A DNA stretch of 64,000 nucleotides, taken from assembly GCA_041740355.1 (NCBI GenBank), contig JBGSMD010000030.1, positions 64,001 to 128,000 of the forward strand, given 5' to 3'. The notes under the pieces are model-generated. The model searched no databases. It saw nothing but the letters and a program-made list of their open reading frames with translations, and had not been told where the DNA came from. This stretch comes from Bdellovibrionota bacterium (lineage in GTDB: Bacteria; Bdellovibrionota_C; UBA2361; CALJRW01). Each line of letters begins with the position of its first letter. The first letter of the stretch is position 1. Of this stretch, positions 39,472-44,696 are shown one piece after another. The position numbers and the translations under genes are program-made.

Positions 39472-40476
39472 TTAATCAAGTTTGATATAGTAAAGCGGAT
39501 GGTCACTAGCATCTTTATCGATTGCCAGCATTTTTACTGAGATTTTTTTCCGTTCCGACTTAGACATTTGATCTAAGCTTTGTTGCGATATCAAAATATC
39601 ATCAATTCTTTTAAATTTTTTGAAGGGCTTTGCTAATTGCTTCGGACCAATCTCAGCTTGTTGTAAAAGACTGATGTATTCTGCTTGATCTGAGAACTTT
39701 AAGTTGCAACTGGCGGTATGGTCTTTAGAAAGCGAGCAAAGTTTTTGTTGAAAGTGTGAAAGGTCTAACTCTCCCGCAAGTACTTTAGAACTTGCCGAAT
39801 AATTATCACTATTACGGTCTCCAAGTAGGATGAATACTCGAGTAGGATTTTGGTTTTCTACCTCTCTTGCAATATCATACAAACCCTGCGCCATTTGCAC
39901 GCGATCATACTCAAAACCAAATTTAGCACTATCAAAACTATTAAATGCTGCAATCGATTTAAAATGAAAATTAAACAAAGTTAATTTCCTTCCCGTTCTT
40001 ATTTCTGTAAGATCTATTCGCAGTGGACCTCGGGAAAAATATCGGTTTTTCTCCCAACGAGTTATTGGTTTTAGTAGGTAATAGCTATATGATAAAGCAA
40101 AGTCTAAATGAAAAAGATCTGCTCTGAAAATGTATCCTTGTTTTGATAATGGATCGTTCGATCTGCCCGAAAGTACCAGATACTTTTTTTTTGTTAACTC
40201 TGCAAGGCTTGAGGCTAATAGTTCTAAAACTTTCACAGCTTCTGATGGATTTTTAGAAATTACTTCTTGTGTAGCAATTAAATCACATTTTGCCTGCCAA
40301 AACCTTTTGGCCAGGGCCAGTCTTTGTTTATCTAGTTGTGCCTCTGATTTTTCTGTTCTTTCCGCTACTGTCTTTACATATCCAAAATTTCCTAGGTTCT
40401 GAGTGCAGATTCTTATGGAAGCATAGGATGGTTGAGCTAATAAGAAGCTAATGAATATAATAAACTTGAGAAACAT
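39472..40476 (-). CDS. exported endonuclease/exonuclease/phosphatase (EEP) family protein
   Basis: Signal peptide; TQNLGN, DLIATQEV, NFHFKS, LGDRN, RIDDI, ASDHPL. Confidence 0.85.
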   Translation of the reverse strand: MFLKFIIFISFLLAQPSYASIRICTQNLGNFGYVKTVAERTEKSEAQLDKQRLALAKRFWQAKCDLIATQEVISKNPSEAVKVLELLASSLAELTKKKYLVLSGRSNDPLSKQGYIFRADLFHLDFALSYSYYLLKPITRWEKNRYFSRGPLRIDLTEIRTGRKLTLFNFHFKSIAAFNSFDSAKFGFEYDRVQMAQGLYDIAREVENQNPTRVFILLGDRNSDNYSASSKVLAGELDLSHFQQKLCSLSKDHTASCNLKFSDQAEYISLLQQAEIGPKQLAKPFKKFKRIDDILISQQSLDQMSKSERKKISVKMLAIDKDASDHPLYYIKLD

Positions 40477-41091
40477 TTAGGCAACTTTAAATTTACGACG
40501 GGAGACAACTCTTTCTAGAGATCTCAAATATAAATCAACTGGGGTATCACTTGCTAGTGCTGATTTTACTCGGCTGATGGCTAAAGATCCAATCAGAATG
40601 GCATCAACTATATCTTGGTGTTTCTTTAGGTTTTCAGAGGAAGAACTAAAACCAATTCGTTCTAAATTATTTTTTTGAGTTTTTTCAACTATTCCTACGG
40701 CCAGATCTTTAACGATGGTTCGTTCTAACTGTTTGCCCCGTAATCCCATAATTTCGTATTGAATTGTTCGGGGGTTAATTCTTCCAGGAACCTGAATATT
40801 TAATTCTCTAGCAAGAGCTTCAAAGATACACCTTACTTGTTCAACTTTAAAGGCAGCAGAGGGATCTTTCATTGAGGTGGGAGACTCACAGATTAAAATG
40901 TCATCTTTTGTTAATTTAAGATTTTTTAAAAGATCATTTACTTGAGTTTGTAAGTTGTCTAGGCGGATGGCTAGAGTATGAATGGAAGGAAGTGGTTTAA
41001 TTTTACCCACACCCAATAATCGTTCTGATTGGACATCAAATAGTGCCCAACCAGTACAAGTTATACTTGGATCAATAGCTACTAATCGCAA
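40477..41091 (-). CDS. divergent RuvC-like Holliday junction resolvase
   Basis: LVAIDPSITCTGWA, ICESP, INPRT, HQDIVDAILIG give the RuvC D-E-D-D pattern; no ruvAB nearby. Confidence 0.8.
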   Translation of the reverse strand: MRLVAIDPSITCTGWALFDVQSERLLGVGKIKPLPSIHTLAIRLDNLQTQVNDLLKNLKLTKDDILICESPTSMKDPSAAFKVEQVRCIFEALARELNIQVPGRINPRTIQYEIMGLRGKQLERTIVKDLAVGIVEKTQKNNLERIGFSSSSENLKKHQDIVDAILIGSLAISRVKSALASDTPVDLYLRSLERVVSRRKFKVA

Positions 41092-41142
41092 TTAAACCCT
41101 CTGGAAATAAAATTTGTGGAGGGCGAGCGTAATCTTGGTATT

Positions 41143-41172
41143 TTTATCAGACTTAGCCCTGGCGAAGTCTGA
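41143..41172 (-). repeat. 30-nt hairpin element, covariant copy
   Basis: Minus strand TCAGACTTCGCCAGGGCTAAGTCTGATAAA, aligned to the family consensus with compensatory stem changes. Confidence 0.7.
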
Positions 41173-41259
41173 AGCCAAGTTACGCCGTAGAAGACAAAAC
41201 CAATACTCACCGCCGAGTTGCGTCGGGTTTGGTAGTATTTTCTACGGCAAAACCTGTTT

Positions 41260-41319
41260 TCCACCTCCGCTTCCCCCTTCGCTAAAGCTGCGGAGGACAA
41301 GAAAGCTATGGCGGACAAG
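41260..41319 (+). repeat. two nested 30-nt hairpin elements
   Basis: Outer TCCACCTCCGCT|AAAGCTATGGCGGACAAG is interrupted by inner TCCCCCTTCGCTAAAGCTGCGGAGGACAAG (41272-41301). Confidence 0.9.
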
Positions 41320-41346
41320 GTAACAGGATTTTGCTCGTTCCCCCTT

Positions 41347-41375
41347 CTTTTCATTTTATTATCAAAAATGAAAAG
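41347..41375. other. AT-rich hairpin just downstream of recA
   Basis: CTTTTCATTTT-N7-AAAATGAAAAG; no clear U-tract on the minus strand. Confidence 0.5.
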
Positions 41376-41391
41376 CTGTGAGTATATATCC

Positions 41392-42489
41392 TTATGCTAC
41401 TTTTTTTGTAGTCTTTTTACCTTTGACATCATCTTCTTTTTCCAGGCCCGCAGGATTTTCAATTAGATTAAACGCTACTTCTTTTGCGCTGGGCTTGTCA
41501 TTACCAACATCTAAAGTTTCCAAAATTAATCTCTTCATCTCTTGAGTTAGTTCTGGATTCTGAGTCATGTATTCCTTAGCACCTTCACGTCCTTGTCCCA
41601 GTCTTTCTCCTTTATAAGAGTACCAAGCGCCAGACTTATCGATAATGCCTTGGGTCACACCAAGATCTAGAATCTCGCCAATTTGATTAATACCTTCATT
41701 GAAGATGATATCAAACTCAGCTTCACGGAATGGAGGAGCAACTTTATTTTTTACAACCTTCACACGAGTTCTGCTGCCACTAACAACATCATTCTCTTTA
41801 ATTGAAGCAATTCTTCGGATATCCATCCGAACACTACTGTAAAACTTCAGTGCATTTCCACCAGCTGTTGTTTCGGGCGATCCAAACATCACACCAATCT
41901 TCATTCGAATTTGGTTAATAAACAGAATTGAACAATTTGCTTTATGAGTATGAGCCGTTAACTTTCTTAGGCCTTTACTCATTAAGCGGGCTTGCATCCC
42001 AGGTTGCATGTCAGTCATTTCGCCATCAATTTCGGCACGTGGTGTTAAGGCTGCAACTGAGTCGATAATTACGAATTGCACTGCACCAGAAAGAATTAAT
42101 GCTTCACAAATTTCTAATGCTTGCTCTCCACAATCTGGTTGGCTGACTAATAATTTAGAAGTATCAACACCAAGTTTTTTAGCATATCCAACATCAAGTG
42201 CGTGTTCGGCATCAATAAATACTACTGTTCCACCAGTTTTTTGAACTTCAGCAGCGATGTGCAGTGCTAGCGTTGTTTTACCTGAGGATTCTGGTCCATA
42301 GATCTCACAGATTCTTCCTTTAGGAAGACCGCCTATTCCTAGGGCAATATCCAAACCCAAACTTCCTGTTGAGTAGGATTCAATTTTCTCATGTGGCTTA
42401 TCACCTAAGTTCATGATTGTGCCTTTGCCATATCTTTTTTCGAGTTGGCTAATAGCAGTCTCTAATTCTCTTGTTTTATTGTCTGTCAT
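41392..42489 (-). CDS. recA: recombinase RecA
   Basis: [55 protein letters not shown]. Confidence 0.99.
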
Positions 42490-42561: not shown

Positions 42562-43188
42562 TTAATGTAATTCTCTCATTATTCCGATTACTCTTCCCTG
42601 AACTGTTACGCTATCTAAGGTAATTGGTTGTAGAGTAGGGTTAGCAGGTATTAGCATAACTTGCCCGCTCTTTAATCGACGATATTTTTTTAAAGTTGCT
42701 GTGCCATCATCTAAAAGTGCCACAACAATTTGTCCATTCTCTGCCGTATCTTGCTTACGAATTACAACAATGTCGCCGTCACAAATGTGCTCATCAATCA
42801 TTGACTCTCCGCTAACTTCCAAGCAATAAATTTCACCTTTGCCATTAATCATGCTTGGTGGAATATCAATCATTGTTTGTTGCTCGATGGCTTCAATCGG
42901 ACGACCGGCAGCAATTACTCCGGCAAGTGGAACTGCTGTTGGACTCATCTCTGGGGAATCACAATCAATTAACTCAATTGCTCCATCATCGCCTCTTTGG
43001 ATAAAGCCTTTGCTTTCTAGTCTTTCTAAGTGAAAGTGAGCAGTAGAAGGGGATTTTACTCCAATTGATGTGCAGATATCTTTAAGGGTTGGCGCAAAGC
43101 CATGCTCTGCCATGAAATTTCTTAAGAATTCCAATGTTTTACGTTGTACAGGGGCGAGACTACTAGTTTTATGGGAGTTAGTGCTCAT
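42562..43188 (-). CDS. lexA: SOS repressor LexA
   Basis: wHTH (APTLKDI...SPSTAHFHL), cleavage site IAAG.P, VSGESM, ATLK. Confidence 0.97.
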   Translation of the reverse strand: MSTNSHKTSSLAPVQRKTLEFLRNFMAEHGFAPTLKDICTSIGVKSPSTAHFHLERLESKGFIQRGDDGAIELIDCDSPEMSPTAVPLAGVIAAGRPIEAIEQQTMIDIPPSMINGKGEIYCLEVSGESMIDEHICDGDIVVIRKQDTAENGQIVVALLDDGTATLKKYRRLKSGQVMLIPANPTLQPITLDSVTVQGRVIGIMRELH

Positions 43189-44622: not shown

Positions 44623-44696
44623 GTCCTCGTAGCTCAGCTGGATAGAGCACTAGTTTCCTAAACTGGGGGTCGGATGTTCGAATCATCTCGGGGACA
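44623..44696 (+). tRNA. tRNA-Arg(CCT)
   Basis: Acceptor GTCCTCG/CGGGGAC, D arm GCTC..GAGC, anticodon loop TTCCTAA, T loop TTCGAAT; CCA not encoded. Confidence 0.95.

Follow-up and report, generated by a model that had tools for sequence, protein, structure and literature searches.

What is the four-armed structure that separates recA from a RuvC-like gene in a Bdellovibrionota genome, and does it have anything to do with the protein encoded next to it? The question is raised by positions 41118-41343 of the window, a 64,000-nt stretch of DNA (contig C30:64001-128000 of the source genome G000, 3.27 Mb in 74 contigs). These positions lie within the recA-ruvC spacer, and the initial annotation described them as a structured mobile element that mimics a Holliday junction and is possibly processed by an adjacent RuvC paralog. 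Our results suggest that these positions make up the central domain of a mobile, non-autonomous repeat copy of the miniature inverted-repeat transposable element (MITE) type, a reading to which we give a probability of roughly 0.82, and that the adjacency to RuvC is best read as a chance insertion. The repeat is a new MITE-type family for Bdellovibrionota, of an already known MITE kind; no description of it was found in the literature searched, which does not prove that none exists. For the idea that started the work the result is deflationary: a common repeat happened to land there.

When 30 copies from the genome are aligned, they define a conserved unit that is longer than the 41118-41343 span, and since this unit runs from ~41093 to ~41388 it fills the whole recA-ruvC spacer. 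Its parts, to which no strand is assigned, are the following.

41093..41388, whole repeat copy as delimited by aligning 30 copies of the genome; AACCC to GAGTATA span 292 nt (41095-41386), flanked by TA on both sides
41097..41123, left terminal hairpin (HL), 12 bp, present in the minimum free energy (MFE) structure of 23-29/30 copies; the inner arm, GGAGGG, doubles as the outer part of the closing stem first proposed, and the outer arm is AGAGGG when read on the minus strand
41124..41128, 5′ side of the junction-closing stem P0, CGAGC, pairing with 41333-41337
41129..41183, arm 1, a basic 4+6-bp hairpin with an apical cassette of ~33 nt at ~41140-41172
41184..41248, arm 2, the long central hairpin of the MFE structure, in which 41203-41213 is complementary to 41375-41385
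41249..41332, arm 3, a basic 10-bp hairpin with two nested ~30-nt cassettes at 41260-41320 (outer left unit 41260-41271, inner cassette 41272-41301, outer right unit 41302-41320)
41333..41337, 3′ side of P0, GCTCG, pairing with 41124-41128
41338..41386, right terminal hairpin region (HR), an inner A+T-rich hairpin (41347-41357/41365-41375) followed by the right terminal motif ending in GAGTATA

By our reading of the alignment, the apex of arm 2 carries inverted copies of both terminal motifs.

The repeat is dispersed through its own genome. BLAST of the stretch against G000 gave 82 matches, and a second BLAST gave 91 high-scoring segment pairs that fall at 57 places, ~30 of them full units and the remainder solitary copies of the arm-3 module. 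A search by nhmmer with a short copy, anchored on the conserved ends, defined 30 loci, in 28 of which both ends could be recognised. A covariance model of the repeat core found 31 loci in G000, in line with the earlier idea of a mobile element, and 5 loci (9 matches, both strands counted) in G001, a sister species of the same genus; the close relatives of G000 are deposited Bdellovibrionota metagenome-assembled genomes (MAGs). Among the 28 two-ended copies, 12 measure 196-202 nt, 11 measure 227-243 nt and 3 measure 258-263 nt, and the two others are a deletion form of 171 nt and the window copy, which is the longest at 292 nt. Optional modules of ~31 nt occur at the apex of arm 1 in 6/30 copies and at the apex of arm 3 in 11/30 (doubled or partly doubled in 2), as well as in the 3′ closing region of 4 copies and at one further site in a single copy. 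The window copy combines the arm-1 module with a doubled arm-3 module, and contigs from other copies skip 41138-41174 and 41257-41323. The proposal that the apices of arms 1 and 3 had absorbed 30-nt insertions with the fold intact is thus borne out by ~31-nt modules that basic copies lack. Contigs from two DNA runs break inside the repeat. In the second run one contig links the recA end with the right-hand part of the element, and the joints seen derive from other copies; these runs have no bearing on expression.

The copies keep out of genes, with 29/30 located outside open reading frame (ORF) calls, the calls around the copies being crude. Both orientations occur, and the flanking genes are divergent in 10 cases, tandem in 10 + 5 (two orientations) and convergent in 3, with one side missing in 2, so that no orientation rule relative to genes could be found over the 30 copies. 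Only mechanical ORFs of 69-90 aa cross the window copy, and the ~31-nt modules are not a multiple of three. As a side observation, the right end faces a gene start in 21/29 copies with a gene called there, and the left end is unbiased (15/29); with ORF calls this crude, the bias gives only a hint of an outward-acting signal or of an insertion bias.

Comparison of G000 with its sister species could show which of these sites are polymorphic. The distance from the recA stop to the RuvC-like TTG start is 300 nt in G000 and 24 nt in G001, where the gene has its own AGAGGA before the start. Four further G000 sites (two on C20, two on C63) were all empty in G001 (4/4), and among four G001 copies examined, three sites were empty in G000 and one was orthologous to the copy at G000 C12:61715. 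With the shared site counted in both totals, 5/6 G000 sites are empty in G001 and 3/4 G001 sites are empty in G000. Since filled and empty sites occur in both directions, the family has moved in both lineages since they split, and the earlier description of the element as mobile holds. At the locus in question, insertion of one copy has parted recA from the divergent RuvC gene, the only one of the lineage; in the sister the two genes stand just 24 nt apart. A transposase acting in trans would move the element at A+T-rich TA sites. On the minus strand the copy would be co-transcribed with recA and ruvC, and its end would supply AGAGGG as the ribosome-binding site for the TTG start. This natural insertion splits a tight recA-ruvC pair and probably replaces its ribosome-binding site, and could be used to ask how repeats rewire SOS-linked operons.

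Bacterial MITEs have been described as small, non-coding, dispersed and A+T-rich, with terminal inverted repeats and TA at the termini, and exceptions to A+T-richness, such as YPAL, are on record in the same source (PMC2229807). The present repeat is small and non-coding, occurs as dispersed copies, carries terminal inverted repeats and leaves filled and empty sites. The terminal repeats start TA-AACCC, and in most copies TA precedes the left end and closes the right end. They are imperfect in G000, and the relatives G011, G006 and G080 carry a perfect 12-nt terminal repeat pair. In these relatives the element as a whole is dyad-symmetric: hairpins lie inside both ends, the closing sequences mirror each other, and arm 1 is the reverse complement of arm 3. 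In G000, where the ends likewise enclose hairpins, the symmetry of the central domain is nearly two-fold. The apex of arm 2 in G011 holds a longer insert of 69 nt, which looks like nesting. The four-way fold arises because the element is a long inverted repeat whose halves each hold a small palindrome. In single-stranded DNA or RNA, the two halves would pair to form the closing stem and arm 2, and the internal palindromes would fold out as arms 1 and 3, the GC dinucleotides at the corners being part of the conserved half-repeat sequence. The family therefore offers a simple structural reason for a cloverleaf-like fold. As a separate observation, about ten asymmetric copies in G011 (loci L092-L101) match the symmetric element from the left end through the terminal hairpin and closing sequence to arm 1, but soon after arm 1 they end, in a different motif finishing GGTATA. 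These may be 'half' units, of which the symmetric element would be an inverted doublet.

Among known systems, the Correia elements of Neisseria (CREE/NEMIS) come close, as they too are small non-coding intergenic repeats with terminal inverted repeats and TA ends, form stable stem-loops when transcribed, sit by gene starts or ends where they can supply expression signals and, in the accounts cited, have no known cognate transposase, which is also the case here (PMC2649163, PMC2229807). The present element differs in being 200-292 nt long, with a branched four-way core and two terminal hairpins instead of one long hairpin, in having a G+C content above that of its genome, and in its optional ~31-nt cassettes. 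The pneumococcal RUP, linked to IS630-Spn1, is described as using TA target sites and a transposase supplied in trans (PMC2229807), both of which we can only infer for this element, and the ends of the IS630-type gene in G000 are unlike those of the element. Insertion at or near dyad symmetry has been described for YPAL/RU-2 of Yersinia (PMC2229807); here it is the small cassette that shows a preference for hairpin apices.

The fold that drew attention to the locus could be reproduced. Over 41100-41360, the MFE structure of the plus strand has -94.8 kcal/mol and consists of a closing stem and three hairpin arms with zero unpaired junction bases, compared with a mean of -68.6 (sd 4.5) for 200 dinucleotide-preserving shuffles (z = -5.84, 0/200 as stable), and the minus strand reaches -95.0 (z = -5.17, 0/200 as stable). 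The four-stem fold read in the spacer thus stands on both strands, and in the control that had been proposed for it no shuffle folds as well on either strand. The GC dinucleotides noted at the four corners (41127-28, 41184-85, 41247-48 and 41333-34) are there in the sequence, and with them the gapless junction and its exchangeable core, which is also seen in the MFE structure. The 2-bp 'branch migration' follows from the self-complementarity of these four dinucleotides. The high G+C content reported for the spacer was likewise confirmed (50.9% over 41118-41343 versus 36.3% in the genome).

Across the family the junction is less regular. Corners alone being counted, all four GC dinucleotides are kept in 16/30 copies and each singly in 24-27/30. 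The outer six pairs of the 11-bp closing stem first proposed (GGAGGG) compete with the left terminal hairpin, and the junction-closing stem proper has 5 bp and appears in the MFE structure of 12-14/30 copies. When the 30 copies were folded, they shared a plan of 4+6 bp in arm 1, 18+7 bp in arm 2 and 9-12 bp in arm 3, with a right terminal hairpin of ~4-6 bp enclosing 12 bp. Applied to full elements, RNAalifold missed the four-way fold owing to competition from alternative pairings. The remark that G-T wobbles fall on the plus strand could be kept in part: three pairs are fixed as G-U on that strand, but there is no general strand preference. Folding energies favour neither strand, in the window copy or over the 30 copies, and the 155 G-T and 106 A-C mismatches over the 30 copies become 99 versus 106 when two fixed wobble positions are removed. 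Such near-equal numbers are as expected of neutral decay from a folded master copy with no preferred strand.

The order was surveyed through 91 genomes from 39 genera. By BLAST, the full element was confined to G000 and G001; with the covariance model of the core, matches also appeared in G006, G011, G034 and G080 at E <= 1e-5, and 17/91 genomes had matches at E <= 0.01.

Several results weigh against the MITE reading and should be set beside the evidence for it. A parent transposase with matching ends was not found in G000, although MAG assemblies break at repeats, so that absence is not shown. Two candidate parents were rejected, the one IS630-type gene of G000, whose termini differ from the ends of the element, and Y1 genes whose flanks are unrelated to it. 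Pairs of element ends enclosing an ORF were found neither in G000 and G011 nor in a metagenome scan. The element is also not A+T-rich, as MITEs usually are, since its copies have 42.3% G+C and the window copy 45.2% in a genome of 36.3%; a matching parent and A+T-richness are the MITE features that fail here. The two ends in G000 match at 9/12 positions by our reading of the alignment. Moreover, divergence at the empty sites (coding flanks 71-83% identical in the filled-versus-empty alignments) is too great for a target-site duplication of TA or TATA to be separated from an element that itself ends in TA. Covariation among the 14 close copies (mean column identity 90%) was null, with one double-change pair that 394/500 shuffles equalled; although 92.1% of cells pair in these copies, versus 33-44% in slid controls, selection on the fold after insertion is thus not demonstrated. 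An alignment of 44 matches that includes diverged relatives gave another picture, in which 88.0% of cells pair versus 78.0% in shuffles, but this alignment was fitted to the model and contains both strands of most loci in related rows. In it, 35/50 pairs change on both sides (24.0 +/- 2.7 in shuffles), the covariation score is 0.252 (0.114 in shuffles, 0.040-0.066 in slid controls), and 0/500 shuffles reach any of the observed values. Compensatory changes occur in all ten arm-1 pairs and all ten arm-3 pairs of the same alignment. The covariation that the initial annotation had called for is therefore present across families, although none was seen among close copies. From these alignments we conclude that the hairpins have probably been maintained over long times, as DNA or as RNA.

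For the question of the parent, further candidates for larger elements dissolved on inspection: the long-range end pairs in G000 are neighbouring short copies, and the 'solo' ends in G011 are asymmetric short copies. A 15-mer scan of metagenomes gave mostly chance matches, with the core motif near an end in 9/80 loci examined and two ends in none. The rejected IS630-type gene (G000 C8:19189-20267; DDE_3, E 1.3e-32) lies at a contig end, and ~140 nt are common to it and to the ends of C9, C10, C11 and C18. This sharing by five contig ends indicates a multi-copy insertion sequence that broke the assembly. By eye, its terminal sequence is like the ends of a second short repeat family and unlike this element.

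The alternative that survives best keeps most of the MITE explanation and differs from it in the enzyme only. It supposes that the repeat moves in single-stranded form, as DNA, through a hairpin-recognising tyrosine (HUH/Y1) transposase, in the style of REPIN/RAYT or IS200/IS605, with no DDE enzyme and no TA duplication. This we consider unlikely. In its favour, a hairpin lies just inside each end, the ends in G000 are unlike each other, the ~ten 'half' copies beside symmetric ones in G011 recall single repetitive extragenic palindromic (REP) sequences beside REP doublets, and the small cassette favours hairpin apices. Furthermore, Y1_Tnp has 6 matches in G000, 5 of them above the Pfam cut-off, and the family is present in 74/91 genomes with up to 19 matches per genome, unusually abundant for this transposase type. 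The likeness to REP/REPIN systems with RAYTs extends to palindromic extragenic repeats, to symmetric doublets with single 'half' forms (PMC3116915, PMC3337134) and to Y1-type genes in the same genomes. Nevertheless, neither the element nor the cassette has anything in common with the flanks of the Y1 genes, and BLAST found no matches at those places. RAYTs are described as typically single-copy (PMC5581495), whereas these Y1 genes occur in multiple copies. A REP is also several times smaller than the present unit, and no REPtron-type arrangement was seen. The terminal hairpins also differ in sequence, unlike ends bound by one Y1 enzyme. The presence of the family barely tracks that of the cassette (31/33 cassette genomes versus 43/58 others), and as the genomes are related, not independent, this co-occurrence carries no usable signal. 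The Y1 genes themselves form a multi-copy family of 321-341 aa in G000 (C16:249390-250415, C51:14138-15163, C51:22114-23139, and on C26 and C63).

A second alternative, which we also hold to be improbable, is that the repeat acts mainly as RNA, as a cis-regulatory or small-RNA family that tunes ruvC after recA by serving as a stabiliser, a processing site or a hairpin that masks the ribosome-binding site. On the minus strand, the end of the element carries a Shine-Dalgarno-like AGAGGG 5 nt before the ruvC TTG and inside the terminal hairpin. In the window copy this hairpin is a weak one when folded as mRNA (-6.0 kcal/mol; of the 29 copies that have the hairpin, only 3 are weaker). Nevertheless, weaker hairpins are not a property of copies beside gene starts (7 vs 23 copies, p = 0.80), and a scan of 40950-41550 for promoters and terminators found one promoter-like site, no more than in shuffles, and zero terminator-like sites. 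Pairing of the arms is kept through compensatory changes across families and 21/29 right ends face a gene start, as an RNA role could explain, but the close copies lack covariation, there is no orientation rule relative to genes, and G-T and A-C mismatches are symmetric between the strands. Correia elements offer a precedent for effects on promoters and through RNase III, as far as the cited accounts go (PMC2649163, PMC2229807). The copy shared by the two species (L062; G000 C12:61715-61914 / G001 C24:39640-39842) is identical at 180/201 positions versus 325/476 in its flanks, and the alignment is without differences over the last ~75 nt, from the right closing stem through the right hairpin to the end. 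However, the intergenic flanks that adjoin it are also well conserved, so that no conclusion on selection can be drawn. This copy lies 28 nt upstream of a conserved gene start, and its right end may serve the expression of that gene. Searches against known RNA families found no counterpart. Rfam 15 at the gathering score had as its sole match in the whole window a tRNA at 44623-44696, a permissive Rfam scan of 40900-41600 gave two sub-threshold chance matches only, and ARAGORN found no tRNA or tmRNA in the stretch.

The MITE reading leaves the small hairpin cassette to be accounted for. The arm-3 module is an independent hairpin of ~30 nt with 62 sites in G000 (e.g. C38:36780, C6:63345 and C11:48750), often exactly at the apex of other hairpins, and its flanks fold at -12 kcal/mol or better at 17/62 sites versus 0.6% of 2000 random positions. 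By our reading, its hosts comprise this repeat along with two further repeat families and several terminator-like hairpins; as hosts recur in repeat families, independent cassette insertions must be far fewer than 62. Where doubled, the cassette nests in its own loop (L1 L2 loop R1 R2), with L2/R2 in 8/13 multi-unit sites. By our own alignment, the arm-1 module of the window copy is the same cassette reversed, with its stem compensated. A 23-nt cassette core (<=2 mismatches) was found in 33/91 genomes and 18/39 genera, with 46 matches in G000, and with the pattern reversed as a control, no genome gave a match.

BOX elements of Streptococcus pneumoniae and the BIMEs of enterobacteria have constant end modules and a variable number of a short internal module. 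The present repeat has a similarly modular build, but its variable module is a hairpin that nests at arm apices and is doubled inside itself, not in simple tandem. A near-invariant core, at least four unrelated hairpin hosts and self-nesting together form the pattern behind a speculative idea, to which we give little credence, that the cassette, and perhaps the whole repeat, spreads by structure-directed integration into the tips of hairpins or cruciforms and so builds branched junctions stepwise. The obvious candidate enzyme would be the abundant Y1/HUH family of 330-340 aa, which is not tied to the cassette, and excision could involve a nuclease specific for junctions or hairpins, RuvC included. 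If true, integration at tips would be a new mode of mobility for micro-elements, targeting secondary structure instead of sequence. In any case, the spread of a near-invariant cassette at hairpin tips across the order is worth a second look.

Whether the element is tied to RuvC can be judged from its distribution. Only 1/31 element copies adjoins RuvC, and the same site is empty in the sister species. When ~1.5 kb on either side of the other RuvC-like loci was searched with the covariance model, the element was found at 0/17, so that of 18 loci only that of G000 carries it. The RuvC-like gene was present in 31/31 genomes searched, the element core in 17/91, and the proposed co-occurrence with this RuvC clade therefore fails, the gene being universal among the genomes searched and the element patchy. 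The initial annotation had itself allowed that the adjacency may be chance, and had named many unlinked copies and empty sites in relatives as grounds for keeping the element and giving up RuvC. What was found agrees with these grounds: 1 copy in 31 is adjacent, the sister lacks the element at this site, and the gene is universal where the element is patchy. By that yardstick the link is refuted. RuvC-family enzymes cleave four-way junctions, and the fold resembles a Holliday junction or cruciform in its four-way junction, stacked arms and short exchangeable core, next to a protein with a RuvC fold; it differs in being the single-strand fold of a repeat that has no genomic association with RuvC. 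That the element is a Holliday-junction mimic cut, resolved or mobilised by its neighbour, the adjacency being functional, is thus highly improbable, for the perfect junction with its 2-bp exchangeable GC core, the RuvC fold and invariant residues of the neighbour and the known junction complexes among its structure matches (4ld0, 6s16) are set against 30/31 copies elsewhere in the genome, the empty sister site, 0/17 other RuvC loci, a gene in 31/31 genomes with an element in 17/91, and GC corners all kept in just 16/30 copies. A Holliday-junction-like fold beside RuvC is no ground for calling the two a substrate-enzyme pair.

The genes around the element lie on the minus strand in the order lexA, recA, the 300-nt spacer, a 204-aa ORF and a 334-aa ORF.

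42562-43188, minus strand, lexA, before recA
41392..42489, minus strand, recA (Pfam RecA, E 5.8e-133), the neighbour upstream of the element and outside it
40477..41091, minus strand, divergent RuvC gene, 204 aa with a TTG start, neighbour of the element and outside it
39472-40476, minus strand, 334-aa ORF, 3′ of the RuvC-fold gene

The RuvC identity of the 204-aa protein comes from the fold search, as sequence models alone failed. It has zero Pfam matches, and against the PDB the single sequence gave nothing useful and the profile no match. The NCBIfam RuvC model scored it at E 0.0044 and 16.9 bits against a cut-off of 163. An AlphaFold2 model with 11 orthologs as input reached a pLDDT (predicted local distance difference test) of 90.6, and the top 10 Foldseek matches in the PDB were all bacterial RuvC, the best being 4ld0_B (E 6.7e-9; template modelling score, TM, 0.77 target-normalised; 0.72-0.80 over the top 10). 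D7, E69, D160 and D163, which we take to be the catalytic tetrad, are invariant in the 11 orthologs. The RuvC-like gene has exactly one match per genome in the 31/31 genomes of the order searched, and a search of G000 with Pfam RuvC (PF02075) found no further RuvC. The first description of it as a 'RuvC paralog' should be dropped, as it is the sole RuvC-like gene detected in G000 and there is one per genome elsewhere; we read it as the lineage's ordinary, divergent RuvC. Pfam thus overlooks a divergent RuvC gene that each of the 31 genomes searched in the order was found to have. recA stands upstream of it only in G000 and G001. On its other side, a homolog of the 334-aa ORF lies 3′ of the RuvC-fold gene in 12/12 loci examined, so that the two look like a conserved gene pair. 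The 334-aa ORF has a hydrophobic N-terminus and a weak match to ExeM/NucH extracellular nucleases (E 1.4e-5, far below the cut-off).

Other short repeat families directly adjoin copies of the element, as at 14616-14815 of L047 (G000 C20:7500-25000) and 3938-4281 of L048 (G000 C63:80000-94000), and these neighbouring families have many copies in G001 too. The intergenic regions of the genus thus appear to collect several kinds of small repeat side by side.

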